Translations under genes and position numbers: made by a program
Shown: one piece after another, positions 35,820 through 55,968 of the stretch
Layout of the letters: each line of letters begins with the position of its first letter
How positions within the stretch are numbered: position 1 is the first letter of the stretch
The notes under the pieces: generated by a model
Told to the model about the DNA's origin: nothing
What the model saw: the letters and a program-made list of their open reading frames with translations, nothing else
Database searches by the model: none
NCBI GenBank assembly: GCA_965242865.1
Contig: CBDETK010000013.1
Span: 4,512,001-4,576,000, forward strand
Source: Candidatus Latescibacterota bacterium
GTDB taxonomy: Bacteria; Latescibacterota; UBA2968; UBA8231
Reading direction: 5' to 3'
Length of the DNA stretch: 64,000 nucleotides

Positions 35820-35839
35820 GTTGTACCTCCGCGTCTTTC

Positions 35840-37075
35840 CTAAATCACATCGTCGCCGCAGTGCGACAAATAGTGCTCCAACGCCGCCATGCCCGCGCTG
35901 GTATCCACCTCGGCCCCCTCGTGCGCTAGCGCCCCGCCCAAAGCGTGCAATACGCGGAACAAGTGCGGTGCTCGGCACTGCTCGCCCATCTGGCCGATGC
36001 GCACGACGTCGAGGCCAAAGGCCCCGGAGATTTCGACCTGAAAGCGGCTCGACATATCGGCGCGCACCCGGGCGTTATCCACCCCAGCCGGTACTTGGAT
36101 CGCCACCACCGAATTGAGGCGAATGGGCCGCGGCGCGGCCAGCACTAGCCCCATCTGCTCAATGCCCGCTTGCAGGGCCAACGACGAGTGCCGATGCCGC
36201 GCAAAGCGCCGCTCCAGCGTCTCCTCGCAGACCAACCGCAACGCCTCGTGCAGGGCCAACAGCCCCGACACCGGCGCGGTGTAGTGGTACTGGTGGTGCT
36301 GCCAAAAGCTCTGCGCCCGCAGGGCGTCTAAGCACCAGTGCGGCCGAGGGCCGGGATGTTGCTGCACCTGCTGCCAAGCCGCGTCGGAAAAGGCGATCAG
36401 CGCGACGCCCGGCAGCGACGACAGGCCCTTCTGGCTGCCGGTCAAAACCACGTCAATGCCCCAAGCGTCCTTTGCCAACGGCATGGTGCTCAACGTGCAA
36501 ACCGCATCGACGACTACCAACGCCCCGTGGTCGCGGCACAAGCGGGCAATCGACGGCAAATCCACCGTGCAAACGCCACTAGAAGTCTCGCCCTGCACCA
36601 TGGTCACCACGTCGTACCGCTGCCCCTTGAGACGCTCGGCAACGCGCTCGGCGCAAATGGCGCGCCCTTCCGGCACGGCCAGCACTTCGACCGCGGCTCC
36701 CACGCCAGCCGCCATCTCGGCAAAGCGCCCGCTAAACCAGCCGTTTTGCAGGACCAAGGCCCGGCGGCCAGGCCAGAGCAGGTTGCCCATCGCCATCTCC
36801 ATGGCGGCCGACGCCGGCCCTCCAATCCCCAAGATGTGCTCGTCGGCCGTCTGAAAGGCATAGCCAGCCAACTGCTTGATCTGTTCGACCAGCCGATCCA
36901 TCGTCGGGCCCAAGTGATTGATGACCATGCCGCCGGCCCGAGCGACCTCGGCCGCCACCGGCACCGGCCCAGCCCCCATCAGCAGCAGCGGCTCGGCCGG
37001 CAGGAGTTGATCCAGCGGTGAAAACGCCGGGGCCTCTAAGCCGCCAACGCCGCGCTGGGACGCTGCATTCTCCAT
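35840..37075 (-). CDS. Alanine--glyoxylate / class V aminotransferase
   Basis: LLMGAGP, QGETSSGV, VDAVCTL, TGSQKGL, YHYTAPV, RIGQMG. Confidence 0.9.
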   Translation of the reverse strand: MENAASQRGVGGLEAPAFSPLDQLLPAEPLLLMGAGPVPVAAEVARAGGMVINHLGPTMDRLVEQIKQLAGYAFQTADEHILGIGGPASAAMEMAMGNLLWPGRRALVLQNGWFSGRFAEMAAGVGAAVEVLAVPEGRAICAERVAERLKGQRYDVVTMVQGETSSGVCTVDLPSIARLCRDHGALVVVDAVCTLSTMPLAKDAWGIDVVLTGSQKGLSSLPGVALIAFSDAAWQQVQQHPGPRPHWCLDALRAQSFWQHHQYHYTAPVSGLLALHEALRLVCEETLERRFARHRHSSLALQAGIEQMGLVLAAPRPIRLNSVVAIQVPAGVDNARVRADMSSRFQVEISGAFGLDVVRIGQMGEQCRAPHLFRVLHALGGALAHEGAEVDTSAGMAALEHYLSHCGDDVI

Positions 37076-39068: not shown

Positions 39069-39083
39069 TCGAAAGGATTGACC

Positions 39084-39854
39084 ATGCTTTACGGCTTGAT
39101 CTTCATCCTCGCCCTCGCTGGCTCGGCCAGCGCCCAAGAAGCCACCCGCTTCCAAGCTCCACCAGCCGAGCTACCCACCTACCAAGTCCTCCGCACGGAC
39201 CAAGGGATCCAAGTCGATGGCCGCCTCGACGAGGCCGACTGGCAGCGCACCGCGCCCATCGCCTTTGTGATGCCTTGGACCGACCTCACCCAAGAGGCAC
39301 CGCAATCCACGACCGCCCGCTTGCTCTGGGACGACGACAACCTCTACATCATCTACGAGTGCGTCGATCCGCATCTAGACTCCGAGGTGACCGAGCACGA
39401 TGGGAAGGTGTACCAAGAGGACGCGGTCGAGATTTTCGCCGCGCCCAATGCGGCTGTCCCCGGCAACTACTACGGCTATGAGATGAACATCCACGGCACC
39501 TTGCTCGACTACATCGCCTTCGGCGGCGGCGTGGAGCGCACCAAGGCCATTCACAATTCTTGGCAGAGCGAAGGCGTGGTCATGGCCACTACGTATGACG
39601 GCACCCTCAACGACCACTCAGACACGGACGCAGGCTGGATCCTCGAAATCGCCATCCCCCACGACAACTTCCGCCACTTGGGAGGGCAGATCCCGCCCCA
39701 AGATGGCGACCAATGGCGCGTCGGGCTAAACCGCACTAAGGGCTACCAAGGCCAATATGGGATGTGGTCCGACACTGGAACGCCCGTGGCCGACTTCCAC
39801 CGCGCCCACCGCTTCGGCGTCCTCACCTTCTCGGGCGCGGTCGTCGGCCCCTGA
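39084..39854 (+). CDS. Secreted carbohydrate-binding family 9-like (DOMON-like) protein
   Basis: Signal peptide ASA|Q, I.VDGRLDEADW, RLLWDDDNLY, DAVEIF, W..EIAIP, DFH....FG. Confidence 0.8.
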   Translation: MLYGLIFILALAGSASAQEATRFQAPPAELPTYQVLRTDQGIQVDGRLDEADWQRTAPIAFVMPWTDLTQEAPQSTTARLLWDDDNLYIIYECVDPHLDSEVTEHDGKVYQEDAVEIFAAPNAAVPGNYYGYEMNIHGTLLDYIAFGGGVERTKAIHNSWQSEGVVMATTYDGTLNDHSDTDAGWILEIAIPHDNFRHLGGQIPPQDGDQWRVGLNRTKGYQGQYGMWSDTGTPVADFHRAHRFGVLTFSGAVVGP

Positions 39855-39869
39855 AGCACTGCGGCTTTC

Positions 39870-41996
39870 ATGGTTGGGCGGCCCCTAGGACGGATGCTCT
39901 CGATCCTGAAGCGTCTCAAAGGCCGGCGCGGCCAACGGCAACGGCTGTGGCTGCGCCTGCTGGGCTATTACCTCGCCTTGGGGCTGGTGCCGGTGTTGCT
40001 GGTCGATCTGTTCGTGTTGAACACGGCTCGGGCGGCCATTGAAGAGGCCGTGCTAGACAGCCGCCGCGAAATGGCCCACCGCACGGCCGAGGAGATCACC
40101 CACATCTTTTCTACCATCTCCTCCAACTTGCAACGCCTCGCCCAGTACGTGGCAACGGCAACCGAGCCGCAGGATGTGCCCGCGTTGCTCGAAAAGGCCG
40201 CGCTCGCAGACAGCGACGTGGAGGCCCTGTACCTAGTGGACAGCCAAAACCAAATACAGGCGGCGAGCGCGGCGATTGCGTGGCCCGCTTCCTACGACCC
40301 GGACGCGGCTTGGGCCAAGGTCGCGGCCGGCAGCCTGTACGTCGCCCTGCTCGAAGAATTTAAGGAGACGCCCAAGCTCTTTGTCGCGCTCCCGGTGGAA
40401 CGGGACGGTCAGCCGACTCAACAAGCCCTCCTCGCTCGCCTCGACTTTCACCGAGTCTGGCAAAAGATCGATCTCATCCACCTCGGCCGCACCGGGTACG
40501 CGACCTTGCTCCACGCCGACGATGGGCACTATCTGGCGCGGCCCATGCGCCAGGCCTTCTACTCGTGGCAACATCACCCGCACGTACAGGCCATGCGCGG
40601 GCCAGCCGGCATTCTCGCGTGGCGCGACACCGGGGGCACGGACTGGGTCACGGGGTTTGCGCCCGTGCGCGACTGGGGCTGGATCGTCGCCATTGAACAG
40701 CACGAGGACGAGGCGTATGCCCCGTACACCTTTGTGCTGTACGCGCTCTATGCGGTCATCGTGCTTTCGGCGCTCGGGTCCCTGATTTTGGGCGGCTTGA
40801 CGCGCAACTCGGTCGTCGCGCCCCTCGTCTTGCTCACCCACGCGGTGCGCCGCCGGCGAGACGGCTATCCCCTCCTCGGCGCTCCCACGGCGCGGCGCGA
40901 CGAAATCGGCGAACTAGCCGACGCTTTTGTCGAGCTGGACCAAACGCTGGCCAAACGCCAGCGCGACTTGCAGAGCACCTTGGACTTGCAGCACCATCTG
41001 ATCGAGGACAATCCCCTCGCGGTGGCCGTGCTCGACGCCGAGTACCGCATCGTACAGAGCAACAAGGCGTGGGCCGGCTTGCTGCTGCCGGCCCCGGCCG
41101 CCGCCTTGAGCGCGACCCCGGCCGGGGCCCAAGTGTGCGCGTGGCTAAAGGCCCATCCGACCGCGCAAGAGGTCGATAACCTCGCCATTGAGGATGGCAC
41201 GGTACACTATTGGAACCTGCGCACGGCCGCGCTGCGCCCCGGCCATCGCGGCACGCTCTTGCTCATGGTGGAAGACCAGACCCAGCAACACCTGCTGGAG
41301 CTGCACTACATGCAGGCCGAAAAGCTCTCGGCGCTCGGGGCGGTGGCCGCTGGCGTGGCCCACGAAATCAAAAACCCCCTCGCCATTGTGCAAAACACCT
41401 GCGACCTGCTGCCGCGGCTGGCCCCGGAAGAAAAGGAGGAGCGCGACGAGACCTTGCAGATGATGCGCGCGGCCATCCGCCGCATTGACGAGCGCGTCAG
41501 CAGCCTGCTCGACTTTGCCCGGCCGGCTCAGCACCGCGAGGAGCCGATCGACGCGGTCGCGGTGCTAGAGCAGCTCCTCGACTTGGAGACCAAACACGCC
41601 GAGCACCTCGGCATCTCGATTGAGCGCTGCTTTGAGCCGGTGCCCCCGGTGCTCATAAACCGCGACATGCTCAAAGACATCTACCTCAACATCATCCGCA
41701 ACGCCTTCCAAGCCATGCCCCAAGGCGGCCGCCTGCCCGTGAGCGGCCGCCCCACGCCCGCGGGCGTTGCCATAAAAATCTGCGACACTGGCACCGGCAT
41801 TGAGCCAACCCAGATCGCCCGCATCTTTGAGCCGTTCTTTTCGACCAAAGCCCCGGGCGAGGGCACGGGCTTGGGGCTGGCCATTGCCCAGCGTCAACTG
41901 CGAGAAATCGGCGGCCACATAGAGGTTGCGAGCCGCATTGGCAAAGGCACTTGCTTCGCGCTCTTGCTGCCGTACAATAGAGAGGAAAAGGCATAG
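39870..41996 (+). CDS. Sensor histidine kinase (Cache-like periplasmic, HAMP, PAS-like, HisKA, HATPase)
   Basis: Two TM segments, GRTGYA..L Cache-like motif, RDEIGELA HAMP, AGVAHEIKNPL, NIIRNA, DTGTGI, FEPFFSTK, GTGLGL. Confidence 0.93.
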   Translation: MVGRPLGRMLSILKRLKGRRGQRQRLWLRLLGYYLALGLVPVLLVDLFVLNTARAAIEEAVLDSRREMAHRTAEEITHIFSTISSNLQRLAQYVATATEPQDVPALLEKAALADSDVEALYLVDSQNQIQAASAAIAWPASYDPDAAWAKVAAGSLYVALLEEFKETPKLFVALPVERDGQPTQQALLARLDFHRVWQKIDLIHLGRTGYATLLHADDGHYLARPMRQAFYSWQHHPHVQAMRGPAGILAWRDTGGTDWVTGFAPVRDWGWIVAIEQHEDEAYAPYTFVLYALYAVIVLSALGSLILGGLTRNSVVAPLVLLTHAVRRRRDGYPLLGAPTARRDEIGELADAFVELDQTLAKRQRDLQSTLDLQHHLIEDNPLAVAVLDAEYRIVQSNKAWAGLLLPAPAAALSATPAGAQVCAWLKAHPTAQEVDNLAIEDGTVHYWNLRTAALRPGHRGTLLLMVEDQTQQHLLELHYMQAEKLSALGAVAAGVAHEIKNPLAIVQNTCDLLPRLAPEEKEERDETLQMMRAAIRRIDERVSSLLDFARPAQHREEPIDAVAVLEQLLDLETKHAEHLGISIERCFEPVPPVLINRDMLKDIYLNIIRNAFQAMPQGGRLPVSGRPTPAGVAIKICDTGTGIEPTQIARIFEPFFSTKAPGEGTGLGLAIAQRQLREIGGHIEVASRIGKGTCFALLLPYNREEKA

Positions 41997-41998
41997 CC

Positions 41999-43381
<1,383 letters not shown>

Positions 43382-43729: not shown

Positions 43730-43894
43730 CGCGATGATTCGACGCACTTGTGCGATGTATCAAGGGCCTGCAAGACGAGCGAGAAAATTATCTTATTTTT
43801 TATAACGCATTGTTTAACAGTTATTTATGCTTTATGCCGCCAAAAAACAGGCGCGATTGGCGGCCATTGGGCCCCTCATTGGCACGATTGTTGC
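43730..43894 (+). promoter_or_regulatory. Sigma54 promoter + enhancer, copy A (second enhancer site truncated)
   Basis: TGGCACG-attg-TTGC at 43880-43894; upstream gcgatgattcgacgcacttgtgcgatgtatc; AT-rich IHF-like tract between. Confidence 0.88.
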
Positions 43895-43945
43895 AAATAA
43901 TGCTTGCAGAAGCAACAACCGCACTCTTCCACCAAGGAGGGCATC

Positions 43946-44875: not shown

Positions 44876-44978
44876 GCTTGGAGGCCGCTTCAATTGCCCT
44901 AGGAGCCACACCAGCGGGGCGTCGTCTCGTTAGCAGGCGACGCCCCGTCGCAATCAACCAGCCCAAGCCGAAACCTCC

Positions 44979-45125
44979 ATCCCTATCGCCGCCACTGGGG
45001 GCGGCGACTGCGGGGGGGGCGCCGCCGCCCATTCCGCATCAACCACCGCGTCAGACGATACGCAAAAAATAGCAACGATCCCCCTCCCCTAGTGGTCGCC
45101 GCCCCTAGTGGCGGCGATGGGGACA
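44979..45125. repeat. Inverted pair of GC-rich REP-like palindromes
   Basis: tcgccgccactgggggcggcga (44986-45007) and inverted tcgccgcccctagtggcggcga (45096-45117); third copy at 54700. Confidence 0.75.
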
Positions 45126-45322
45126 TGCGATGTTTCGACGCACTTGTGCGATATATCCGCGCACTTTTAGGCCATCGAGAGCGCATTCAAAGGGCTTGAA
45201 AGACGGGAGAGAAAATTAGCGCATTTTTTTATAACATATTGTATAACAGGTAGTTATGAACATTATACCAAAGAAATCGACGCGATTATCACCCGCTGGT
45301 CGCCTATTGGCACGATAATTGC
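45126..45322 (+). promoter_or_regulatory. Sigma54 promoter + paired enhancer, copy B
   Basis: tgcgatgtttcgacgca (45126) and tgcgatatatccgcgca (45147); TGGCACG-ataa-TTGC at 45308-45322. Confidence 0.92.
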
Positions 45323-45381
45323 AATAATACTCACTGAAACGACAACCGGCACTCTCCACAGCAACAAAAAGGAGGTAATTT

Positions 45382-45458
45382 ATGAAGCACATCGTCCTAC
45401 TGGCTTGGGGCTTGCGGCCCTAGCGGCCAGTGCTTCCTCTCGGAGATCGCCTCCGAGA
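45382..45458 (+). promoter_or_regulatory. Leader element 1: uORF MKHIVLLAWGLRP* (45382-45423) + hairpin
   Basis: GGAGGT RBS; hairpin tctcggag-atcgc-ctccgaga at 45438-45458; homologs at 50332 and 51880. Confidence 0.6.
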
Positions 45459-45488
45459 CAACGCAGCAATTCTGAAAAGGAGTTCATC

Positions 45489-45698
45489 ATGAAACTGCAC
45501 ATCATCCGGCTGGCCATTGGCTTCACGGCCTTGGTCGCCGGCTTCCTGCCGCAGAAGGCGCAGGCACTGAATGAGTGCGATGCCAAATGCGGGGGATTTT
45601 TGGGCTTTGGTGCTAACAGGTGCAGCATATCGAGCCATGATAAGGATGTTAGGTGCTACTGCAACTCTGACAACAAGCCGGTATGCGAAATCGCCTAA
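45489..45698 (+). CDS. Secreted six-cysteine peptide 1 (69 aa; predicted 43 aa mature)
   Basis: AAGGAG RBS; MKLHIIRLAIGFTALVAGFLPQKAQA|LNECDAKCGGFLGFGANRCSISSHDKDVRCYCNSDNKPVCEIA; paralog at 51989. Confidence 0.88.
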   Translation: MKLHIIRLAIGFTALVAGFLPQKAQALNECDAKCGGFLGFGANRCSISSHDKDVRCYCNSDNKPVCEIA

Positions 45699-45825
45699 CG
45701 CATGAGTGTGCATTCCAACGCCTTGGGTAGTGGTTACTCGCCTATACCCAAGGGCAACCCAACAGGCGGCGGGTGGTTCTGACCGCTCGCCGCCCTAATA
45801 CCATACCAAGAACAAGGAGAATACC

Positions 45826-46656
45826 ATGAAACCCTTAGCCATTCGTATCTTGTCCGTCGCCCTGATCGCCGTCGCCAGCACAGCCATGGCCGAGCCTACA
45901 TCCCAATACGGCGGCTTTTCGTCCGACGTCGACAGCCTCCAGTTCTTCTACGACTATATCCACGGTCAAGAGATGATGAAGGTCGAGGCCGGTGATGAAT
46001 TGCGGCGTGCGATAGAGGCCATCCCCGTTGACTTGGGTACTGCCATCGATCTGGAGCAAGAAGCCGGGCTGCGCGATTGGCTCTACGATTTTCTCGTCGC
46101 CTTTTCGGCTTCGGGCAGCGATAGTCTCGCCGTTGCATTTTACATGCGAGAGGGGGCAACCAACTCCGACCTGATAGAGCAGGTGAGCAAGGAGGCCAAG
46201 AGTCAGGGAATCCTAACAGGCGATACCGACACGCCCCTTGCTTTCTTCCACAGCTTTCACAAGGTCGTGCTCAACATGGCAGAGCGCGATTATTTCTTCG
46301 CCAATGTGTCTTTCTTCGACAGCGTGTTCAAGGTGTTTGATATGCAGGAAGAATACGATAGCTATGAGTCCTACCTTGATACTCATGGCATGCTTCCCAA
46401 AGGCAGAGTGTTCTTCGAGCATATCAAACTACGGGAAGACGTCGAAAAACGCTTGCAGGGCGGTCCCCCCTTGGTCTTTGCCGACGTCATGTTCATCGTC
46501 GAGGAGCCCGAAGAGTTTACCACGTTTGAGACCCCGGGACGCACCCCGACCTTTTTTCGGCTACTCTGGGACGAAGAGCAGGCGATGTGGCGCCATGTAG
46601 AGGTCTATTTCAGCCATGGTGTGCCGCATGCGTTTCTTCTGTTCAACTTCATGTAA
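45826..46656 (+). CDS. Secreted protein of unknown family, paralog 2
   Basis: Signal peptide AMA|EP; YGGFSS, LRDWLYDFLVAFSASGSDSLA, RLLWD...MWRHVEVYF. Confidence 0.88.
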   Translation: MKPLAIRILSVALIAVASTAMAEPTSQYGGFSSDVDSLQFFYDYIHGQEMMKVEAGDELRRAIEAIPVDLGTAIDLEQEAGLRDWLYDFLVAFSASGSDSLAVAFYMREGATNSDLIEQVSKEAKSQGILTGDTDTPLAFFHSFHKVVLNMAERDYFFANVSFFDSVFKVFDMQEEYDSYESYLDTHGMLPKGRVFFEHIKLREDVEKRLQGGPPLVFADVMFIVEEPEEFTTFETPGRTPTFFRLLWDEEQAMWRHVEVYFSHGVPHAFLLFNFM

Positions 46657-46689: not shown

Positions 46690-47631
46690 ATGAACAAGCT
46701 AACGCTAAAAGCAGCGGTCGTAGCCGCCGTGCTCGGCACGAGCTGGACTCATGCCGACGAACTGCCGCAGACCGCCGAGTACGGCACCACCTACGACAGC
46801 GAGGGCACAGCCGGCCAAGTACGCTTTGTCGCACCCTACGACATGGAGATCGTCGCGGCTGAACCCGGCTGCGGCTGCACCGGCGTCGAGTTCCCCCAAG
46901 GGCTGTTGAAGGCCGGCGAATCTTACGCCATTTCCTATCAGATCGATACTCGGGGTCGCGCCGGGGCCTTTGCCTCCAGCATTGACTTCCGAGTGGCAGA
47001 CCAAGCCGACAAATGGCAGTTGCGATTGGAAGGCCAAGTTGTGCCCATGCTGCCCGGCAAGTTGCACTTAGGGACGATTCGAGGCGACGACCTAGCCTCC
47101 ATTATCCAACGCATTCCCCTTGTGCAGATCGACGGGCAGCCGCGCCAAATTCGCCAAGTCCAAGTCGCGGGAAAAGGCATCGAGGCAGCGGTGGTAGAAG
47201 GCGGCACCGCCCTAGCAATCGCCCCGGCAGCGGACCTGACGTGGGGAGATCGGATCATCGCCACCATTGAAGCGACGATTGCTGGCGAGAGCGAAGAGTA
47301 CGCCCGTTCCATCCAAGTGCGCGGACGGGTCAGCCCCCGCTTTAGTCTAGCACCACAGAGCGCGTCCTTCGGAGTGGGTGCCGCGCAACGGCGCGAGACG
47401 CTCCAAGTGCGCGTGGGCTTGCCTGCCGAGTTCGCCGACGCGCCCGTACAGACATCGCCTGTGTGCGACGAGGTGCAACTCGACATCGCATACCAACGGG
47501 AAGCCGACCATACCTTAGTCGTCCAGATCGGCAATGCGAGCGATTTCCCCGCTGGTACGCTCCACTGTGGGGTAGAAGTGCAAATCGGCGCGGAGCAGGT
47601 GCTGATACCCGTGCTGGCCCTGACGCGATAA
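46690..47631 (+). CDS. Secreted DUF1573-like (CGC motif) Ig-fold protein
   Basis: Signal peptide THA|D; EIVAAEPGCGCT..FPQGLLKAGES..I...DT.G..G pattern characteristic of DUF1573, followed by beta-rich repeats. Confidence 0.7.
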   Translation: MNKLTLKAAVVAAVLGTSWTHADELPQTAEYGTTYDSEGTAGQVRFVAPYDMEIVAAEPGCGCTGVEFPQGLLKAGESYAISYQIDTRGRAGAFASSIDFRVADQADKWQLRLEGQVVPMLPGKLHLGTIRGDDLASIIQRIPLVQIDGQPRQIRQVQVAGKGIEAAVVEGGTALAIAPAADLTWGDRIIATIEATIAGESEEYARSIQVRGRVSPRFSLAPQSASFGVGAAQRRETLQVRVGLPAEFADAPVQTSPVCDEVQLDIAYQREADHTLVVQIGNASDFPAGTLHCGVEVQIGAEQVLIPVLALTR

Positions 47632-47641
47632 GGAGGCCACC

Positions 47642-48643
47642 ATGACGACCAAAACAACCAAGGCGTGGACCCAGCTCAAATGGGGCCATACCTGCCGCAA
47701 AAAGGGACAACGCGAGCAAGCGACCGCCCACTACCGAACAGCGCGGCGGCTCTTTCGCGCCGGGCCGTGCCAAAAGGGGCTTTTTGCCGCTTGCACCCAA
47801 CTCGGCCACTACTGGGAGATCGCCGGCGACCTCAACCAATCGCTGCGGTATTTCCAAGAGGCATTGGCCGCCTGCTCGCCGAGCCGCGTCCCGTGCGATA
47901 CAGCCGAGGCCGAAGGCAACGTCGGCTTCATCAAGCAAGGCCAAGCCCGCTTTGCCGAAGCGGCAACGCACTACCGCAAGGCCATGCAGTACGCCCAAGC
48001 AGGCGGCGATGCCGCTCTCGCGGCCAAGATGGCTAACAATATGGGCAACCTCTACATACAGCAGAACGACTTAGAGGCAGCCCAACAGTGGCTCCAGCAC
48101 AGCCGCGCCCTCTACGGCAACGACGTGCCGGGCAACCTACTCAACGGCTTGGGGCAACTGGCCCTGCGCCGCGGCGACCCGGAGCAGGCCCTGCACCATT
48201 TCACGGCCGGACTCGCGGCGGCCCGACAGCAAGGGACGCCCCTTGAAGTGGCCCTGCAACTTAGCTGTATCGCCTCGGTCTGCCGCGACTTAGGCCATAC
48301 AGACCGCGCCCTGAGCAGCGGCAATGAAGCCTTGAGTATCTACGTGACACAAGGGCATGCACACGGTCGCTGTAACATGGCGTCGCTGCTGGCCGATCTC
48401 TACATGACCGCCGGCGACTTAAAAATGGCGCAACAGCATATACAGGGGTCTATGGACCTGTGCCATCAGTTGGGGAACGCGCAGATGCAGGCTTTTAATC
48501 ACGTGTCCTTGGGCAATCTGTACGCACGACAAGATGGCGACAAGCGGCGGGCGATGGCCGAATGGATAGCGGCGTTGCGCCTGTTTAAGCAGCTCGGCAT
48601 GGAGATGCAGAGCCAAGCGGTCATTAGGGCCATGGCCGCGTAG
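47642..48643 (+). CDS. Tetratricopeptide repeat protein (no obvious signal peptide)
   Basis: Repeated LG/NMGNLY..QG..A...Y/F..AL helical units over 333 aa. Confidence 0.88.
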   Translation: MTTKTTKAWTQLKWGHTCRKKGQREQATAHYRTARRLFRAGPCQKGLFAACTQLGHYWEIAGDLNQSLRYFQEALAACSPSRVPCDTAEAEGNVGFIKQGQARFAEAATHYRKAMQYAQAGGDAALAAKMANNMGNLYIQQNDLEAAQQWLQHSRALYGNDVPGNLLNGLGQLALRRGDPEQALHHFTAGLAAARQQGTPLEVALQLSCIASVCRDLGHTDRALSSGNEALSIYVTQGHAHGRCNMASLLADLYMTAGDLKMAQQHIQGSMDLCHQLGNAQMQAFNHVSLGNLYARQDGDKRRAMAEWIAALRLFKQLGMEMQSQAVIRAMAA

Positions 48644-48685: not shown

Positions 48686-50257
48686 ATGATCGGCATTGTG
48701 TTCCAAAAAGAGATGCTCAGCCACCTGATCAGCCAGCGTTTTGCCGCTTGCACCGCCCTCGCTGTGGTGCTCATCATCGCCAACGGTATACTCACCAGCC
48801 AGATTTATGTCCAGAAAAGGGGCAGCTATTTCACTCAACGTGCTGTTGAGGAGACCAAACTGCCCGAAATCACGTATTATTCGGTTCTAGGCTCAGACTT
48901 CAACAGTTCCGACAGGGTTCCACTCTTCGACGAGGCGGCGCCGCGCGCCTTACGGCCCCCGCGCCCCTTAGAGGTGTTTGCCCAAGGCGTCGAACAAGAG
49001 GTGGGACAGGCCGTCAAGGTCCTGCTCTTTGAGGTGCCCTACCAAACCGAGGCTATCGCGTCCTCCGAGTCGATCAATCCCTACCTCGCCATCTTTGCCT
49101 CCTTTGACGTGGTGTACATCTTCCAGCTCGTGCTCAGCCTGCTGGCCATTCTCATCGCCAGTGAGACCATCTCCGGCGAGAAGGAGGACGGCACGTTGCG
49201 GCTGATGCTAACGACCAACGTCAGCCGCGCCCAAGTCCTCGCTGGCAAAATCCTCGCCGGCCTGACCACGCTGGCCATTCCAACCGCTCTCGGCTTTATC
49301 CTGCTGACGATCTTGCTGTTGGGCACGGAGTATATCGAAGTCGGGACCGGCGAGTGGGCGCGGTTGGGGCTGCTGTTCGCGCTGTCGCTTTTGTATCTGC
49401 TGGTGTTCTATCTGATTGGGTTGGTGATCTCGTGCGCCACGCACCGCTCGGCCACCAGCTTGATCGTCGCGCTGTTTGCGTGGGCCTTGCTGGCGATTGT
49501 GCTGCCCGACAGTATCACGGCCTTGCTCAACGAGCAGGCCAACATGGGCGAAAAACACAAGCAAGCTCATCACAAGGCCGCGCAGGTGTGGAATAAGTTC
49601 GACCAAGAGGTCGCCGATCTCGCTCGGGCGCACAGCCAGATCCAGTACCCTCCTGTACAGATGGTTGAGCAGTTCACGCACCCGGTTCGCGGAGCGGAAA
49701 TCACCTTTTCGTTCCCTGGCGAATACTCTTACAGTAACGAGCAGGCACCCGCTCTCTATCTCTCTAGTGTGGTCGATTCGCCCTCGCTCGCCGAGTTCCA
49801 AGACATCATCCGCACCGGCGAGCGGTTGCGCCTGAAGTACGCCCAGCGCGCTTGGAACGCCAAAGCCCCCTTGCTCGAAAACTTCCCCCGCCGCATCCAA
49901 CGCTGGAACGGCTGGCTCCAACGCCTCTTGCCCGCCGGTGCGTACGCCCAAGCCGCCAGTGCTTTCGCCGGCACCAGCCGACGCGAATACTACGACTTTA
50001 TCGACCAAGCCCGCACCTATCGCGGGCAAGTCATCGCCTTTCTCGAAGAGCGCGATGCGTTTGGCTCTCGCGAGTGGTTCAACGACGATCCCGGCTGGCG
50101 AGCCGACCTGCGCGACCTGCCGCGGTTTAACGAGCGCGGCTGGACCGTCGCCCAGAGCCTGAGCCATGCCTTGCCTGATCTAACGGCCCTGCTGCTGTAT
50201 GCGACCGTGCTCTTTGGCCTCGCCAACCGACTCTTTGGGCGCTACGACGCCAAATGA
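48686..50257 (+). CDS. ABC-2 type transporter permease, paralog A1
   Basis: IVFQKE start, ETISGEKEDGTLRLML.TNVSR..VLAGK, about 6 TM segments with large extracytoplasmic loops. Confidence 0.85.
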   Translation: MIGIVFQKEMLSHLISQRFAACTALAVVLIIANGILTSQIYVQKRGSYFTQRAVEETKLPEITYYSVLGSDFNSSDRVPLFDEAAPRALRPPRPLEVFAQGVEQEVGQAVKVLLFEVPYQTEAIASSESINPYLAIFASFDVVYIFQLVLSLLAILIASETISGEKEDGTLRLMLTTNVSRAQVLAGKILAGLTTLAIPTALGFILLTILLLGTEYIEVGTGEWARLGLLFALSLLYLLVFYLIGLVISCATHRSATSLIVALFAWALLAIVLPDSITALLNEQANMGEKHKQAHHKAAQVWNKFDQEVADLARAHSQIQYPPVQMVEQFTHPVRGAEITFSFPGEYSYSNEQAPALYLSSVVDSPSLAEFQDIIRTGERLRLKYAQRAWNAKAPLLENFPRRIQRWNGWLQRLLPAGAYAQAASAFAGTSRREYYDFIDQARTYRGQVIAFLEERDAFGSREWFNDDPGWRADLRDLPRFNERGWTVAQSLSHALPDLTALLLYATVLFGLANRLFGRYDAK

Positions 50258-50331
50258 GGGGCCTGAAATTTTCTAACCTTTTTTTACGGCAACGTCATTA
50301 CTTACTTACAGACAGAACGGAGGTAACGCTT

Positions 50332-50407
50332 ATGAAGCACATCGTCTCAACGGGCTTGGGCTCGCAGCCCTAATAGCCCGTGCTTCCCCTCGGAGATCGC
50401 CTCCGAG
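50332..50407 (+). promoter_or_regulatory. Leader element 2: uORF MKHIVSTGLGSQP* (50332-50373) + hairpin
   Basis: GGAGGT RBS; ctcggag-atcgc-ctccgag at 50389-50407; no peptide gene follows. Confidence 0.6.
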
Positions 50408-50448
50408 ACAACGCAGTAAACCCGAAAAGCAACTCAGAAGAGGTCCAG

Positions 50449-51273
50449 ATGAAAACTTTGTATTTCGCCCTAATCGCCGCTTGGTTCGCTGTCGCCAGCG
50501 TCCCTGCCGAGCCGAAAACCCAGTACGGCGGTTACTCCATGCACCCCGACAGCATCCAAGCCTCTCTCCAAGCCTTTCACGATTATGCCAACAGCTTAGA
50601 GATGATAAACGTCGAGGCCGGGGACGAGTTGCAGCAGGCCATCGCCGGCATCCCCGTCAAGGGGGACACTCCCATCACTCCCGCGCAAGAAGCCGACCTG
50701 CACACCTATCTCTACGATTTCTTAGTCGCCTTTTCGGTTTCGAGTAGCGACAGCCTCGCCGCCGCGTTTTACCTCCGCGAGGGCGTCAATAACCCCGAAG
50801 GGATAGAGAAGTTAAAAAACGAGCTTGCAAGCGAGGGCCTTCTAAAAGGCGATACGCCTTTTGACATCCTCAAAGCGGGACACCGGCAACTCCTCGATAG
50901 GCATGACTGCGATTACTACTTGGGAAAGGTATCCTTTTTCGACAGCGCGTTTGAGGTGTCCGAGAGGCAGGCCGAGTATAGCTCTTATTTCAGGTCTCTC
51001 ATGGGCCGCGGCATGTTTCCACCTGGGGCCGGTTCGGGTACCTTTGCTAAAATGAAGAGCGAGGTCCAAGAGCACCTGCAAGCGGGCAAACCGCAGACCT
51101 TTGTGGAGGTCATGTTCATCGTCGAAGAGCCCGAAGAGTTCGCCGCCTTTGAGGGAGCAGCGCACTTCCCGTTCTTCCTCCGCATCGCTTGGGATCCAGA
51201 CAAGACTATGTGGCGTCATGTCGAGATCATTTACGGCCTCGGGAGGCCGTATTTTCTGTTCAGTTACATCTAG
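50449..51273 (+). CDS. Secreted protein of unknown family, paralog 3
   Basis: MKTLYFALIAAWFAVASVPA|EP; YLYDFLVAFSVSSSDSLAAAFYLREG; RIAWDP..MWRHVE. Confidence 0.88.
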   Translation: MKTLYFALIAAWFAVASVPAEPKTQYGGYSMHPDSIQASLQAFHDYANSLEMINVEAGDELQQAIAGIPVKGDTPITPAQEADLHTYLYDFLVAFSVSSSDSLAAAFYLREGVNNPEGIEKLKNELASEGLLKGDTPFDILKAGHRQLLDRHDCDYYLGKVSFFDSAFEVSERQAEYSSYFRSLMGRGMFPPGAGSGTFAKMKSEVQEHLQAGKPQTFVEVMFIVEEPEEFAAFEGAAHFPFFLRIAWDPDKTMWRHVEIIYGLGRPYFLFSYI

Positions 51274-51342: not shown

Positions 51343-51468
51343 ATGCTAGCAGCCATTGTAAAACGGGAACTGATCGATCTCCTCATCAGCCTGCGCCTTG
51401 GCTTAGCCCTCGTGCTGACCGTAGGGCTGAGCTGGCCTACCGAGCGTGGCTGCACACCAGCATCGTAA
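51343..51468 (+). pseudogene. Internally deleted remnant of a type-B ABC-2 permease
   Basis: First ~88 nt match the start of 53166 (atgctagc.gccattgtaaaacg.gaactgatcgat..gtagggctga), fused directly to its last ~36 nt (gctggcctaccgagc.tggct.c.c.ccagcatcgt). Confidence 0.88.
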
Positions 51469-51622: not shown

Positions 51623-51818
51623 TGCGATGTTTCGACGCACTTGTGCGATGTATCCGCGCACTTTTAGGCCATCAATAGCACATTCAAAGGGCCTGAAAGA
51701 CGGACGAGAAATTAATTTATTTTTTTATAACATATTGTATAACAAGTATTTATGAAAATTATAAGAAAGAAATCGACATGATTATCACCTGCTGGCCGCC
51801 TATTGGCACGATAATTGC
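51623..51818 (+). promoter_or_regulatory. Sigma54 promoter + paired enhancer, copy C
   Basis: tgcgatgtttcgacgca (51623), tgcgatgtatccgcgca (51644); TGGCACG-ataa-TTGC at 51804-51818. Confidence 0.92.
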
Positions 51819-51972: not shown

Positions 51973-51988
51973 AGTAAAGGAGCGCATC

Positions 51989-52165
51989 ATGAAGACGCGC
52001 ATCATCCGGCTGGCCATTGGCTTCACGGCCTTGGTCGCCAGCTTCCTGCCGCAGAAGGCCGAGGCTATTGGGTGCTTCATCAAGTGCGGTTCCGATTTCT
52101 GCTTCGCAATTGGTGAGCACGCCAAGTGCGAGTGCAAAAACGGTAACGCGGTATGCAGTGCCTAA
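51989..52165 (+). CDS. Secreted six-cysteine peptide 2 (58 aa; predicted 32 aa mature)
   Basis: AAGGAG RBS; MKTRIIRLAIGFTALVASFLPQKAEA|IGCFIKCGSDFCFAIGEHAKCECKNGNAVCSA. Confidence 0.88.
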   Translation: MKTRIIRLAIGFTALVASFLPQKAEAIGCFIKCGSDFCFAIGEHAKCECKNGNAVCSA

Positions 52166-52277: not shown

Positions 52278-53120
52278 ATGAAAACGCTGTATTTCACCCT
52301 AATCGCCGCTTGGTTCGCCCAGTATGCGTGCGTAGAACGGGAAGCCGACTCCAGCCTTACCGTCATGCCTCCTAAGTCCCAGTATGGGGGCTTTTCATCC
52401 CACCCCGACAGTCTGCAAATTTTCTATGACTACATCCATGGTCAGAAGATGATGAAGATCGAAGCCGGGGCCGAATTGCGGCAGGCTGTCGAGGCGATCC
52501 CCGTTGATCTGGGTGCTCCCATTGACCTAGCGCAAGAAGCCGCATTGCGCGATTGGCTCTACGACTTCTTAGTAGTCTTTTCGGCTTCGGGTAGCGACAG
52601 CCTCGCCGCCGCGTTTTACCTCCGCGAGGGCACGAATAACCCCGACGGGTTAGAATTCCTGAAAGAGTATCTCGCTAGCAGAGACGTCCCGACAGGCGAT
52701 ACGCCCTTTGCCATGTTTGCAGCCGGGCATAGAACAATACTCGGCATAGCGAAACGCGATTACTTTTTCGAGAGCGTGTCCTTTTTCGACAGCGCGTTTA
52801 AGGTATTTGAAATGCAAGAGGCGTACGATAGCTATGCGTTATACCTCCAGACGCATGGCATGGTCCCCAAAGGCACCTTGAATTTTCACCCCAAACTATA
52901 CGACGAGGTTGAGGAAGCTCTACAGGCCGGCGAGTCGTTGATTTTCGCCGACATCATGTTCATCGTCGAAGAGCCGGCAGGGGTCTCCGATTGGCCGTGG
53001 CAGGGGCGCACCCCGTCCTTCTGTCGGCTAGTCTGGGATCCAGAACGGGCTATGTGGTGCCATGTAGAGGTCTATTTCAGCGTCGGTGTGCCGCAAAACT
53101 TTCTGTTCAACCTCATATAA
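52278..53120 (+). CDS. Secreted protein of unknown family, paralog 4 (possible lipoprotein)
   Basis: MKTLYFTLIAAWFAQYAC; YGGFSSHPDSLQ, LRDWLYDFLV, RLVWDPE.AMW.HVEVYF. Confidence 0.88.
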   Translation: MKTLYFTLIAAWFAQYACVEREADSSLTVMPPKSQYGGFSSHPDSLQIFYDYIHGQKMMKIEAGAELRQAVEAIPVDLGAPIDLAQEAALRDWLYDFLVVFSASGSDSLAAAFYLREGTNNPDGLEFLKEYLASRDVPTGDTPFAMFAAGHRTILGIAKRDYFFESVSFFDSAFKVFEMQEAYDSYALYLQTHGMVPKGTLNFHPKLYDEVEEALQAGESLIFADIMFIVEEPAGVSDWPWQGRTPSFCRLVWDPERAMWCHVEVYFSVGVPQNFLFNLI

Positions 53121-53165
53121 TCTACCTTTGCCGATGCCGATGACTCTAAAGAAGGAGACCCCTCA

Positions 53166-54611
53166 ATGCTAGCTGCCATTGTAAAACGCGAACTGATCGA
53201 TCACCTCCTCAGCCTGCGCTTTAGCTTAGCCCTCGTGCTGACCGTAGGGCTGATGGTGCTCAATGCCCTCGGCTTTGTCGGCGGGTCCTACGAGTCCCGG
53301 CGCGACCTCTATCTCGAACAGGTCCAAGCCCAGCAAGAGATCGGCCGCAGCCACGCCCAACAGGGCTTGTGGAAGCTGATCGTCCATGGAGGGCAAGACT
53401 ATATCTATAAAAAACCCAGCCCCCTCATGTTCTGCGCCGTGGGTGCCAACGACGCCCTGCCCGAGCGGCTCTGGACGCCGAGTTGGCAATTCGGGTACAA
53501 CGACGACATCATGTTCTACGATCCCTTTGTACTCATCTATTGGGACATCAAAACCCACTGGGCACCAAAGGCCAGCCAACTCATGAAGGCCCGAGCCATC
53601 GACTGGGTCTTCATCATCGGCGGCCTGCTCAGCCTCATGGCCTTGTTGTTCACCTTCGACGCCTTCATCGGCGAAAAAGAGCGCGGCACCCTCAAGCTGG
53701 TCATGGCGCAGAGCCTGCCGCGGCACACCCTGCTGTTGGGCAAGTTCCTCGGCGCGATGCTCGCCCTCGCCCTCGTGTTGAGCCTCGCCGTTGTCGTCAA
53801 CCTGCTCATCGTCCTCGCGCTGCCGCAGGTGAACTTGGGTCTGGTTGAGGCCGGGCGCATCGTCGGCATGGGCGGCTTATCGCTGCTGTATCTAGCTTGC
53901 TTTGTCGGATTGGGGCTGTGGGTGTCGATACGGAGCAGCACTACGCGCTCCAGTTTGGTGAACGTGTTGTTGCTGTGGACCTGCGGGGTGTTGCTCTGGC
54001 CGGCGGCCGGCGGTGCGTTGGCCTCCCGCGTGGTGGTCCGCGACTTCGGAGAAGCGGTTGTAATGGAGTGGGAGTTCAACGCTCCAGAAAAAGAGAAAAT
54101 TAATCTTCTTAGGTCTGCTGCGCGGAAGCGCGATATGAGAAACCCCAAAAAGCTACGCGAGTTTGCCGAGGCCGAACGCGCCAAGCGTCAGGTTATTCAA
54201 GACCGGGAAGACCAATTTTTGGCCTTCAGCCTCAGCGAGGTTGAAAGAGCGCGCCACATCGTGCGTCTGTCGCCAATGGGCTGCTTCCAGTACGGCATGG
54301 AGGCCCTCGCCGGCACCGGACTAGCGCGTCACAAGAGCTTTGTCGAGCAAGCCCGCACCTTTGTCCAGCAGTTCGAGCAGACCATGCTCAACCTCGACCG
54401 CGACGATCCCAAAAGCATGCACATCCACCCCGTCGCCCAAGGGCTGTCGCGGCAGAAAATCAACCCCGACACCTTACCTGTCTTTACCGAGAGCCTGTCG
54501 GCGGCGACCTTGCTGCGGCATGCGGTCGTCGATGTCATCGGCCTATTCTTCTTCGCCGTTCTCACGTACATGCTGGCCTACCGAGCATGGCTACGCGCCA
54601 GCATCGTCTAA
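53166..54611 (+). CDS. ABC-2 type transporter permease, type B
   Basis: IVKRELID start, FTFDAFIGEKERGTLKLVMAQSLPR..LLLGK, RLSP motif, multiple TM segments. Confidence 0.85.
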   Translation: MLAAIVKRELIDHLLSLRFSLALVLTVGLMVLNALGFVGGSYESRRDLYLEQVQAQQEIGRSHAQQGLWKLIVHGGQDYIYKKPSPLMFCAVGANDALPERLWTPSWQFGYNDDIMFYDPFVLIYWDIKTHWAPKASQLMKARAIDWVFIIGGLLSLMALLFTFDAFIGEKERGTLKLVMAQSLPRHTLLLGKFLGAMLALALVLSLAVVVNLLIVLALPQVNLGLVEAGRIVGMGGLSLLYLACFVGLGLWVSIRSSTTRSSLVNVLLLWTCGVLLWPAAGGALASRVVVRDFGEAVVMEWEFNAPEKEKINLLRSAARKRDMRNPKKLREFAEAERAKRQVIQDREDQFLAFSLSEVERARHIVRLSPMGCFQYGMEALAGTGLARHKSFVEQARTFVQQFEQTMLNLDRDDPKSMHIHPVAQGLSRQKINPDTLPVFTESLSAATLLRHAVVDVIGLFFFAVLTYMLAYRAWLRASIV

Positions 54612-54699: not shown

Positions 54700-54852
54700 T
54701 AGTCGCCGCCACTGGGGGCGGCGACTACGGTGGGGGCGGCGACGGCGGCGACGGCAACGATGGCGATGGCGATGGCGACGACGACCGCGACAGCGATGGC
54801 GACGACCGCGACGACTGCAACGACAACAGCGACAGCAACGATGGCGGCGACC
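54700..54852. repeat. REP-like palindrome followed by degenerate GGCGAC/GGCGAT-type microsatellite
   Basis: tagtcgccgccactgggggcggcgacta, then about 115 bp of ggcgac/ggcaac/ggcgat/gcgac units. Confidence 0.8.
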
Positions 54853-54853
54853 A

Positions 54854-55049
54854 TGCGATGTTTCGACGCACTTGTGCGATATATCCGCGCACTTTTAGGC
54901 CGTCAAAAGGGCTTTGCAAAGGATTTGAAAGCGGGGCAATAAATCAGCTCATTTTTTACAACATATTGTATAACAGACAGTTACGAACACTCTATCAAAG
55001 AAATCGGCGCGATTATCACCCGCTGGTCGCCTACTGGCACGATAATTGC
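54854..55049 (+). promoter_or_regulatory. Sigma54 promoter + paired enhancer, copy D
   Basis: tgcgatgtttcgacgca (54854), tgcgatatatccgcgca (54875); TGGCACG-ataa-TTGC at 55035-55049. Confidence 0.92.
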
Positions 55050-55086: not shown

Positions 55087-55968
55087 ATGCAACCCGTAGC
55101 CATTTTCGCCCTGCTCGCCATCGCCAGCACCGCTATGGCCGAGCCTAAGCATCCGCACGGTGGCTTTTCATCTCACCCCGACAGCCTCCAAGTCTATCTC
55201 GACTACCTCAACAGCTTGGATATGATCAAGGCCGAGGCCGGTGATGAATTGCGGGAGGCCGTCGAGGCCATCCCCGTCAAGCCGAGCATTCCCATCACTC
55301 CTGTACAAGCAGCCGACCTGCGCGACTGGCTCTACGACTTCCTCGTCGCCTTTTCCGTCTCCGGCAGCGACAGCCTCGCCGCGACTTTCTACTTGCGCGA
55401 AGGCGTTGAGGACTCAGAGGCGATACAGCAGATGAAAAAGGACTTGGAAAGCGGGCCCAGTCTCAAAGATAAAGCCATGATAAAAATGCTAAAGGCAGCG
55501 GGGATCACTATTTCCCTCCCCGAGCCGGTCTCTGATGCGGGCGATACGCCCCTTGCCATCTTAGCAACCCAGCACCGACAAATCCTCGCCACAAAGGGGC
55601 GCGATTATTTCTTCGGCAACCTTTCCTTTCTTGGCAGTGCGTTCGAGGTGTTAGAGATGCAAGGCGAGTATGATAGCTATGGGGATTACGTCCAAACCCA
55701 CGGTTTGCTCCCCCAAGGGCCTATGTGGTGGCCGCCCAAGCTGAAAAAAGAAATTGAGAAAAAGCTACAGGCGGGTGAGCAGCGCATCTTTGCCCAATTC
55801 ACGTTCATCGCCGAAGAGCCCGAAGAGTGCGCCGACTTTGAAACGGGGCCGATGCGCTTCCCGTTTTTCGTCCAACTCGTCTGGAGTCCCCAGAAGAATA
55901 TGTGGCGGCTCGTAGAAATTTTCGCGTCTAATGACGCGCCGGTTCTGTTTGTATTCAAGGCCCTATAA
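55087..55968 (+). CDS. Secreted protein of unknown family, paralog 5
   Basis: AAGGAGG RBS; signal AMA|EP; HGGFSSHPDSLQ, LRDWLYDFLVAFS, QLVWSP..MWRLVE. Confidence 0.88.
   Translation: MQPVAIFALLAIASTAMAEPKHPHGGFSSHPDSLQVYLDYLNSLDMIKAEAGDELREAVEAIPVKPSIPITPVQAADLRDWLYDFLVAFSVSGSDSLAATFYLREGVEDSEAIQQMKKDLESGPSLKDKAMIKMLKAAGITISLPEPVSDAGDTPLAILATQHRQILATKGRDYFFGNLSFLGSAFEVLEMQGEYDSYGDYVQTHGLLPQGPMWWPPKLKKEIEKKLQAGEQRIFAQFTFIAEEPEECADFETGPMRFPFFVQLVWSPQKNMWRLVEIFASNDAPVLFVFKAL

Follow-up and report, generated by a model that had tools for sequence, protein, structure and literature searches.

The stretch of DNA considered here, referred to as the window, comprises 64,000 nucleotides of the genome of a Candidatus Latescibacterota bacterium (GenBank assembly GCA_965242865.1, contig CBDETK010000013.1, positions 4,512,001 to 4,576,000 of the forward strand). 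At positions 45489-45698 it contains a short open reading frame (ORF) which, judging by its sequence features, is very likely a genuine gene that has been overlooked and encodes a small exported mini-protein with six cysteines. This peptide is designated pep1, and a related peptide encoded at 51989-52165 is designated pep2. The pep1 ORF extends on the + strand from an ATG at 45489 to a TAA at 45696-45698 and encodes a precursor of 69 amino acids. The parts of the gene and its sister are the following:

45475-45482, + strand: ribosome-binding site AAAAGGAG, separated from the ATG of pep1 by a spacer of 6 nt
45489-45566, + strand: signal peptide of pep1, 26 residues ending in LPQKAQA, with a cut after AQA predicted by rule
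45567-45695, + strand: mature core of pep1, 43 residues with six cysteines (residues 4, 8, 19, 30, 32, and 40)
51989-52165, + strand: pep2, the second family member, 58 residues with six cysteines

The signal of pep1 consists of the n-region MKLHIIR, followed by 13 hydrophobic residues and the segment PQKAQA. Sec-type signals were judged by rule, namely by a basic n-region, an h-region of 10-15 residues, and small residues at -3/-1, and by this rule the N-terminus of pep1 is a Sec-type signal and a substrate of signal peptidase I. A gene for signal peptidase I is encoded in the genome. A preliminary description of this DNA, made from the sequence alone, had proposed a small real ORF with such a signal, and the n-, h-, and c-regions together with the A-x-A motif at -3/-1 support this proposal. 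Among 31 precursors compared, P21 and A26 do not vary and A24 hardly varies, and AAAGGAG-like sites also precede the homologs of pep1. The preliminary description had further claimed that the signals of pep1 and pep2 differ by only four residues, which are those at positions 3, 4, 18, and 25, and that the cysteines of the pep1 core are spaced C-x3-C-x10-C-x10-C-x-C-x7-C. Both claims are correct, and the nucleotide sequences at 45476-45565 and 51976-52065 share 90% identity. The two cores have, as had also been stated, little in common beyond the six cysteines, KCG, and VC, and BLASTP does not find any local alignment between them even at an E value of up to 100. The earlier observation of the sequence was thus right in every detail.

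The genome has a size of 6.0 Mb with a G+C content of 60.6% and is 93.6% complete. It encodes five ORFs of this peptide family, two in the window and three at both ends of the same contig, and three or four different cysteine frames are found among these five peptides. Relatives were collected by searching whole genomes in six frames with precursor profiles. With a first profile, 11 of 24 other genomes of the genus were positive, compared with none of 16 genomes from three other families. A broader profile detected such peptides in 14 of 30 other members of the genus, and in none of 45 genomes of other genera of the taxonomic family or of 92 genomes across thirteen other families of the phylum (0 of 137 in total). 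The six-cysteine peptide family has so far been found in one genus of uncultured Latescibacterota only. In total, 48 distinct precursors were gathered, so that further cores became available, as the preliminary description had suggested. Six cysteines are present in 34 of these precursors, nine were scored as four-cysteine forms (one of which actually has six cysteines and was miscut by the script), and five are truncated or frameshifted with 0-3 cysteines; by script count, 43 of the 48 precursors have four or six cysteines. One form with eight cysteines was seen besides, which fell below the threshold for this set, and odd numbers do not occur in any intact member. When 21 cores of the pep1/pep2 type are aligned, only the columns of the six cysteines are invariant, at a mean column identity of 35%, and the pattern is kept in all 21. 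Taken together, the copy number in this genome, the recurrence within the genus, the invariant cysteines, and the predominance of forms with four or six cysteines go far beyond chance. At five loci (L019, L030 (4884), L008, L044 (2958), and L072 (4897)), members are broken directly behind an intact signal, with 0-3 cysteines or an aberrant tail. Such broken members suggest that cores often decay or are replaced behind a front end that stays intact.

In public data the family is rare. It is represented by 43 proteins in a collection of 5.8 billion proteins and by 34 clusters among 1.84 billion representatives. Four metagenome proteins (P0124-P0127) are 79-93% identical to pep1 and retain all six cysteines, and pep1 itself could be hidden inside the cluster of P0126. 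No protein listed in the 5.8-billion-protein collection is at least 90% identical to pep2, which has thus seemingly never been called as a gene. PADLOC, Pfam, and NCBIfam did not yield a family for the peptides, nor for a second group of proteins encoded next to them, which is called P280 and is described below. The expectation that standard annotation could easily miss such peptides is thereby supported.

The contrast between signal and core is also reflected in the rates of non-synonymous and synonymous changes per site (pN/pS). For signals the pooled pN/pS amounts to 0.31 and for cores to 0.82, with some of the pairs aligned with gaps. For 26 ungapped pairs with the same scaffold, drawn from 38 precursors cut at residue 26 and having identical cysteine positions and length, the pooled values are 0.42 for the signal and 0.88 for the core, and the core exceeds 1 in 11 of the 26 pairs; these core values include the invariant cysteine codons, and the compared pairs are not mutually independent. 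By these ratios, the signal is under purifying selection. Tandem paralogs of relatives do not show any difference within 75 nt of the signal, and their cores have 11 and 28 differences. Four sequencing runs were compared with this region; they consist of contigs and show presence and strain variants only, and a search for RNA runs with the sequence listed none. One contig, of run X4, carries a strain variant, read by hand, whose core differs from that of pep1 in nine codons, eight of them changed non-synonymously and one synonymously. Its single listed difference in the signal is synonymous, and its changes in the core match those between pep1 and P0124. Positive selection on the cores at short range is likely on these grounds, but not proven. 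The claim of a conserved leader followed by a diversified core on a cysteine scaffold is nevertheless well founded, as the 21 aligned cores, the identity profile of the cassettes, and the pN/pS contrast agree in this respect.

The conserved front end is not confined to the signal. It comprises the following features, to which the putative regulatory genes and the further promoters in the window are added:

45135-45152, + strand: upstream box TCGACGCACTTGTGCGAT with the dyad CGCAC-TT-GTGCG, a candidate enhancer-binding site located 173 nt before the promoter
45224-45249, + strand: AT-rich stretch between box and promoter, conserved in the cassette alignment
45308-45323, + strand: sigma-54 promoter TGGCACGATAATTGCA (-24 GG / -12 GC)
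45382-45423, + strand: short upstream ORF (MKHIV...) of 13 codons in the 5' untranslated region (5'UTR)
45439-45457, + strand: hairpin CTCGGAG-ATCGC-CTCCGAG in the 5'UTR
45721-45794, + strand: two strong stem-loops (45721-45753 and 45765-45794) between pep1 and the next gene
39870-41996, + strand: sensor histidine kinase (Pfam: dCache_1, HAMP, HisKA, HATPase_c), the candidate sensor of the regulon
41999-43381, + strand: NtrC-type sigma-54 activator (Pfam: Response_reg, Sigma54_activat with an E value of 4.8e-68, HTH_8), the candidate activator of the cassettes
43739-43894, + strand: box and sigma-54 promoter of the peptide-less P280 gene 43904-44743
51632-51818, + strand: box (51632-51649) and sigma-54 promoter (51804-51818) of the pep2 cassette
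54863-55049, + strand: box and sigma-54 promoter of a pair of P280 genes (55087-55968 and 56025-56915) and an ABC-2 permease gene (56964-58547)

The conserved unit, here called launch module, spans about 440 nt with 85-97% identity between the two cassettes and consists of the 18-nt box, the AT-rich stretch, the sigma-54 promoter, a 5'UTR of about 155 nt, and the signal. When the pep1 and pep2 cassettes are aligned, identity amounts to 83-97% over 45126-45393 and is mostly above 73% from there on to 45569. Over the mature core, the intergenic stretch behind it, and the very beginning of the next gene (45570 to about 45850) it amounts to 27-53%, and it is back at about 70-87% within that gene. 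The drop at the beginning of this island of low identity coincides with the start of the mature peptide. The signal makes up only a small part of the conserved block, a point that is absent from the preliminary description.

The 18-nt box occurs in four exact copies in the window, with 0.01 expected and none of 100 shuffles reaching four, and these copies are located 141-173 nt upstream of sigma-54 sites. Across the whole genome, six copies with up to two mismatches are found, and behind every one of them, at a distance of 141-174 nt, there is a sigma-54 motif. All six pairs of box and promoter fall within two cassette loci, the one in the window and a second one described below, and at this mismatch level there are none elsewhere in the genome. 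The promoter motif TGGCACN5TTGC likewise occurs four times in the window (43880, 45308, 51804, and 55035), always on the + strand and just before a cassette, with 0.17 expected and no instance among 100 shuffles that reaches this count. The genome as a whole has 63 sigma-54-like motifs and encodes rpoN. Of the 22 peptides of the pep1/pep2 type from the window and relatives, 12 are preceded by a strict sigma-54 motif at a distance of 144-188 nt from the start codon, as opposed to none of nine peptides of other types. Scans for sigma-70 promoters and terminators gave nothing exceeding shuffles.

The genes for the histidine kinase and the NtrC-type activator stand directly upstream of the first cassette. 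By its sequence elements, the layout of the cassettes is a textbook enhancer-dependent arrangement, in which the activator encoded at 41999-43381 would bind the 18-nt box and the AT-rich stretch might act as a DNA-bending site. It is probable, and can be stated with good confidence, that the pep1 cassette is under the control of sigma-54 and an activator. Just upstream of the two-component genes, a STAND-type (signal transduction ATPase with numerous domains) NTPase (AAA_16 / nSTAND1) is encoded at 34338-35978 on the - strand and a secreted CBM9-like protein at 39078-39854 on the + strand. A second pair of kinase and activator genes, 43% and 60% identical to the first, is located at G000:C13:3588131-3591557, G000:C13 being the contig of the window. 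About 30 kb from this paralogous pair there is a lone P280 gene (G000:C13:3559067-3559879) that is 84% identical to the gene at 43904.

In the 5'UTR, the hairpin motif is found upstream of 10 of the 22 pep1/pep2-type peptides. The short upstream ORF was considered as a leader peptide but was rejected because it is probably not conserved as a coding unit: it has 5 to 20 or more codons in relatives or is absent there. The cassette at 50380-51273 has a 5'UTR like that of the peptide cassettes, with upstream ORF and hairpin (50312-50436), which runs straight into the P280 gene; this cassette has neither a peptide gene nor a box or sigma-54 promoter ahead of it. G-rich repeats of the type GGGGGCGGCGAC are present at 44978-45124 and 54703-54762, just upstream of two of the launch modules. 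A match to the Rfam family MIR1858 at 44978-45124 was discarded as a chance match on the G-rich repeat, because it reaches 41.8 bits at a gathering score of 137.

Downstream of the peptide genes, the intergenic regions ahead of the P280 genes fold unusually well. The z values of the two cassettes in the window are -4.79 (pep1) and -3.90, and none of 200 dinucleotide shuffles folds as well. Against mononucleotide shuffles, 20 of 21 such regions have z values below -2 with a median of -5.2, and strong stem-loops persist although the sequences in these regions are dissimilar. The stem-loops at 45721-45794 may serve as a stabilizer of the transcript or as a partial stop, and such 3' hairpins would fit a small, highly expressed structural gene that is set apart from its operon mates.

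The genes following the two peptide genes encode the following proteins:

45826-46656, + strand: P276, a secreted protein of the P280 family with 276 residues, without Pfam family and with a predicted NTF2-like fold
46690-47631, + strand: DUF1573 protein with an N-terminal signal
47642-48643, + strand: tetratricopeptide repeat (TPR) protein
48686-50257, + strand: permease of the ATP-binding cassette (ABC) type 2 (ABC-2) with DUF3526 (type a)
52278-53120, + strand: P280 family protein of the pep2 cassette
53166-54611, + strand: ABC-2 permease (type b)

The P280 family consists of secreted proteins of about 280 residues with 347 database relatives and no Pfam domain. Besides the gene at 45826-46656, paralogs are encoded in the window at 43904, 50380, 52278, 55087, and 56025. 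The neighborhood of the peptides was evaluated for the 43 intact forms, excluding the five degenerate ones. P280 genes are located directly downstream of 23 and directly upstream of 15 of them, 35 have a P280 gene on at least one side, and all 43 adjoin a gene for P280, an ABC-2 permease, or DUF1573. A structural model of P280 (predicted local distance difference test (pLDDT) 80.4, predicted template modeling score (pTM) 0.81) matches many NTF2-like chains in VIA-align with Z values of 5.0-6.3, and Foldseek does not find any match at an E value of 0.001 or below; the predicted NTF2-like fold class is a lead only. An FSASGSDSL-like motif is strictly conserved among the P280 proteins, in which Tyr, Trp, Glu, and Asp are also invariant at many positions. 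In an NTF2-like fold, these conserved residues hint at a pocket or an active site. The best scores in the ESM Atlas are 0.82 for the peptide and 0.89 for P280, both below the level of 0.9 that would count as a lead. A complex prediction for the pep1 core with P276 gave a score of 0.02 relative to a mark of 0.32, which weighs neither for nor against binding. In NCBIfam, the ABC-2 permeases weakly resemble SagH and CPBP-type permeases, with scores that stay far under the cut-offs. A remnant of an ABC-2 permease gene with 41 codons is located at 51343-51468, behind the peptide-less cassette at 50380. Its first 94 nt are 94% identical to the beginning of another permease gene (53160-53253), and its last 36 nt match the end of that gene (54572-54607). 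It looks like a gene that has lost its interior by deletion.

The second cassette locus is larger and spans both ends of contig G000:C13 (L039 5759-16567 and L040 1-12579). It contains P280 genes, pairs of ABC-2 permease genes, DUF1573, three family peptides, a TolC-like OEP, an extracytoplasmic function (ECF) sigma factor, glycosyltransferases, and a transglutaminase-like protein. The ABC ATPase of this locus is apparently split over two overlapping frames (L039 14202-14765 and 14578-15567). The sixth pair of box and promoter, as read from the coordinates, precedes an operon with the TolC-like OEP, the ABC ATPase, and a peptide of the family.

For the core of pep1, the structure prediction and fold search proposed in the preliminary description yielded a model with four strands and no significant match. 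The AlphaFold2 model, based on the alignment of 21 sequences, has a pLDDT of 86.9 and a pTM of 0.55. It consists of the strands 2-8, 17-23, 28-32, and 38-42 without any helix, and C4 and C8 are located in strand 2-8. The fold is thus predicted to be all-beta and not that of a cysteine-stabilized alpha-beta (CS-alpha-beta) defensin; as the CxxxC motif is placed inside a strand, the cysteine-stabilized helix that defines cis-defensins, which carries CxxxC and is tied to a beta-strand with CxC, is not predicted. Foldseek does not find any match of the peptide model in the PDB at an E value of 0.001 or below, and neither a defensin nor a knottin is among the rows. In VIA-align, one of 48,161 chains reaches a Z value of at least 2 (the best being 2.1). 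Small folds score poorly in both programs, and the lack of a match does not show the fold to be new. In a profile search of PDB sequences nothing was found below an E value of 0.77, and that one match is a cyclotide. The number of cysteines is even in all 43 intact forms, and this strict regularity favors pairing and suggests three disulfides in the pep1 core. It can be regarded as highly probable that pep1 is a real exported peptide with paired cysteines.

Overall, these features are best explained if pep1 is the structural gene of an exported mini-protein belonging to a multi-scaffold, sigma-54-driven family, a comprehensive reading to which about an even chance is assigned. In the mechanism proposed, an external cue would be sensed by the dCache kinase and relayed to the NtrC-type activator, which would bind the six boxes so that the sigma-54 promoters are opened. 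The peptide message would be stabilized or partly terminated at the 3' hairpins and translated, and the precursor would be exported by Sec and cut after AQA. The 43-residue core would then fold into a four-stranded all-beta module locked by three cysteine pairs. The mature peptide would leave the periplasm, possibly via the co-regulated set of ABC-2 permease, ABC ATPase, and TolC-like protein. A target outside the producer, either competing microbes or the host, would drive the diversification of the loops, and P280 and the ABC-2 pumps might serve export or self-protection. Up to the promoter and the signal, this mechanism is supported by sequence statistics; all steps after export are inference. 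An antagonistic or host-directed effector is the most likely function, and an antagonistic or effector-like role is put forward tentatively, with somewhat less than even confidence.

Several observations weigh against this reading. In comparisons of pep1 with two orthologs for which DNA is available, the pN/pS of the core is below 1 (0.46 and 0.51), and the pairs used for pN/pS are not independent of each other. Together with the pooled values of 0.82-0.88, the resulting picture is mixed and is therefore read as a constrained cysteine frame with fast-changing loops. The fold rests on a single model from 21 sequences. P280 genes are commoner than peptide genes: a peptide is encoded in the flank of only 26 of 69 P280 loci, leaving 43 of 69 without one. 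In addition, the closest paralog of P276 (92% identical) does not have a peptide gene beside it, and both facts make a strict one-to-one partnership of P280 and peptide doubtful. The locus in the window does not itself encode an ABC ATPase or an outer-membrane component. By inspection, the pep1 core is not cationic, as it has six acidic and five basic residues, and many relatives are strongly acidic; the slightly acidic character argues against a classical cationic membrane-active antimicrobial peptide. Finally, DsbA (PF01323), Thioredoxin_4 (PF13462), VKOR (PF07884), and DsbB (PF02600) do not have a match in the 93.6%-complete genome, and the named control genomes were positive. Among 1105 ORFs with a signal, the number of cysteines is even in 385 and odd in 482, so that routine periplasmic disulfide formation is not evident, although this set stems from a crude signal heuristic on raw ORFs, includes membrane proteins and false ORFs, and provides a weak test.

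In the search for thiol-disulfide proteins, Thioredoxin_2-type matches alone were found, three of which exceed the cut-off. The absence of Dsb-type enzymes is odd for an organism that encodes many secreted peptides with a cysteine frame. Either the peptides would oxidize outside the cell, or an unknown oxidase would be involved, or the cysteines would bind metal. The latter case leads to an alternative in which pep1 would act in the periplasm as a mini-protein that binds or buffers metal in cooperation with the ABC-2 transporters. The missing oxidation enzymes and the lack of an even-cysteine bias in exported ORFs speak in its favor, as does a sub-threshold match to the Pfam family zf-B_box (E value 0.0069, 17 bits at a cut-off of 24.1). 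Metal sites, however, frequently involve His or Asp, or contain Cys residues in odd number. The intact members have four or six cysteines (eight in one form) and never an odd number, which fits pairing better, and the 21 aligned cores do not have any conserved His or Asp. The fast turnover of non-cysteine positions over several scaffolds would also be unusual for a metal binder with a housekeeping role, and metal binding as the purpose of the cysteines appears improbable.

A comparably improbable alternative takes the peptide as a secreted signal, i.e., an autoinducer or pherotype that is sensed by the neighboring dCache kinase and closes a positive loop on the six promoters. Such a circuit would account for the position of the peptide genes directly downstream of a dedicated kinase/activator pair of which they are the apparent targets, and variable cores could define strain-specific signals. 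However, five peptides on three or four scaffolds are faced by only two such kinase/activator pairs in the genome, half of the genomes of the genus are peptide-less, and P280 loci without a peptide are common. Moreover, dCache domains usually bind small molecules.

The CxxxC and CxC motifs had given rise to a comparison with CS-alpha-beta defensins in the preliminary description, which had itself pointed out that the overall order of cysteines is different. The latter remark is accurate, as CxxxC comes first and a lone Cys follows CxC, and the resemblance itself is not sustained by this order or by the helix-free AlphaFold2 model with CxxxC within a strand. Accordingly, it is very improbable that pep1 is a bacterial cis-defensin in the sense of a relative of xanthusin or actifensin with a shuffled cysteine order. 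The peptide shares with these proteins the two motifs, six cysteines, a small size, and secretion, and bacterial cis-defensins with signal peptides do exist according to PMC11561630. The order C-xxx-C...C...C-x-C...C nevertheless deviates from C...CxxxC...C...CxC, which is given as defining in PMC11561630. There is also no defensin match in Pfam, no sequence match in the PDB, and no defensin among the Foldseek rows. Weaker still, and hardly credible, is the idea that the ORF is not a gene but results incidentally, in GC-rich DNA, from a conserved non-coding leader: the conserved block does reach far upstream of the ORF and gene callers apparently missed at least pep2, but the frame is open in 43 of 48 homologs with cysteine codons kept while others change, the signal part has an excess of synonymous changes, the ribosome-binding site is conserved, and the DNA identity ends inside the ORF, which continues with a conserved cysteine frame.

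Families in which small disulfide-type peptides combine a conserved signal with a hypervariable core are a hallmark of animal venoms, of the control of symbionts by plants, and of innate immunity, and to our knowledge they have barely been described in bacteria. An uncultured phylum here offers a clear regulatory circuit with one kinase, one activator, and six matching promoters, and about 40 natural mini-protein scaffolds are available for expression and testing. The family also provides a case for studying how a module of promoter and signal stays uniform while its payload changes, raises the question of how Cys-rich peptides fold in a cell that seemingly lacks DsbA and DsbB, and gives a concrete example of genes missed by gene callers and family databases. 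A farther-reaching proposal, which is considered rather unlikely, is that a bacterial counterpart of the design of conotoxins and nodule-specific cysteine-rich (NCR) peptides is realized here. In this proposal, a launch module homogenized by recombination would be combined with swapped cysteine scaffolds, folding would proceed without canonical DsbA/DsbB, expulsion would be of an ABC-2/TolC-like type, and the peptides would be aimed at competitors or an animal host. If this were true, symbiont genes of this kind could be the unrecognized source of some of the cysteine-bridged peptides from marine invertebrates.

Several known systems resemble the family in part. Conotoxins and nodule NCR peptides combine a conserved signal with a hypervariable, cysteine-containing core. 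With these and with MgCRP-I from mussel, the latter as described in its abstract, the family shares near-identical signals of paralogs, a mature part in which only the cysteine frame is kept, and the occurrence of several frameworks per signal family. In contrast to all three, it is bacterial, organized in operons, probably transcribed via sigma-54, and devoid of a pro-region; its conserved block includes promoter and 5'UTR, and it is linked to ABC-2 permeases and an NTF2-like protein.

With small bacteriocin and microcin operons, the cassettes have in common a small structural gene followed by a strong hairpin, with accessory genes and ABC-2 type permeases downstream. Unlike class II bacteriocins, the peptides carry a Sec signal instead of a double-glycine leader, the ABC-2 permeases do not have a peptidase domain, and a C39 peptidase-ABC exporter was not seen. 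The lack of modification enzymes and the anionic character of the peptides are further differences from bacteriocin operons. The route of heat-stable enterotoxins leads through Sec export, periplasmic oxidation, and expulsion via ABC/TolC. A Cys-rich peptide with a Sec signal in a regulon with ABC components and a TolC-like protein is found in both cases, whereas the transporter here is of the ABC-2 and not the MacB type, DsbA/DsbB were not found, and there is no sequence similarity.

Knottins have six cysteines in the knotted connectivity 1-4, 2-5, 3-6 on a small beta-sheet, and the model of the pep1 core is beta-rich with six cysteines. The spacing rule of knottins is nearly matched by relatives with short loops (C-x3-C-x4-C-x8-C-x-C-x7-C), but the third loop exceeds the length permitted by this rule. 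No knottin appeared in the fold searches, in which small folds score poorly, and the only sequence match was the above-mentioned cyclotide. Cysteine-bridged sponge peptides such as asteropsins, recifin A, and barrettides (reviewed in PMC12426817) have a similar length of about 30-45 residues, six cysteines, a beta-rich structure, and often an acidic character. This review states that barrettides are encoded by the sponge itself, and a link of cysteine-bridged sponge peptides to symbiont genes of the kind described here is only speculative.

For bacterial cis-defensins, five classes including xanthusin-1 and the actifensins are distinguished in PMC11561630, with the cysteine order C1...C2xxxC3...C4...C5xC6. 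According to this source, they share with the present family that they are small, bacterial, equipped with a signal peptide, and have six cysteines. They differ in the order of the cysteines, in lacking sequence or profile similarity and the predicted all-beta structure, and in their phylum. The literature searches made did not reveal such peptides for Latescibacterota, nor a bacterial family of this design, with the limit that the sequence tables S2-S6 of PMC11561630 could hold a similar cysteine pattern. The peptides described here belong neither to the families of conotoxins, NCR peptides, and MgCRP-I nor to the bacterial cis-defensins, and they stand apart by unusual features, namely the apparent lack of a Dsb system, the neighborhood of NTF2-like proteins and ABC-2 permeases, and the sigma-54 launch module.

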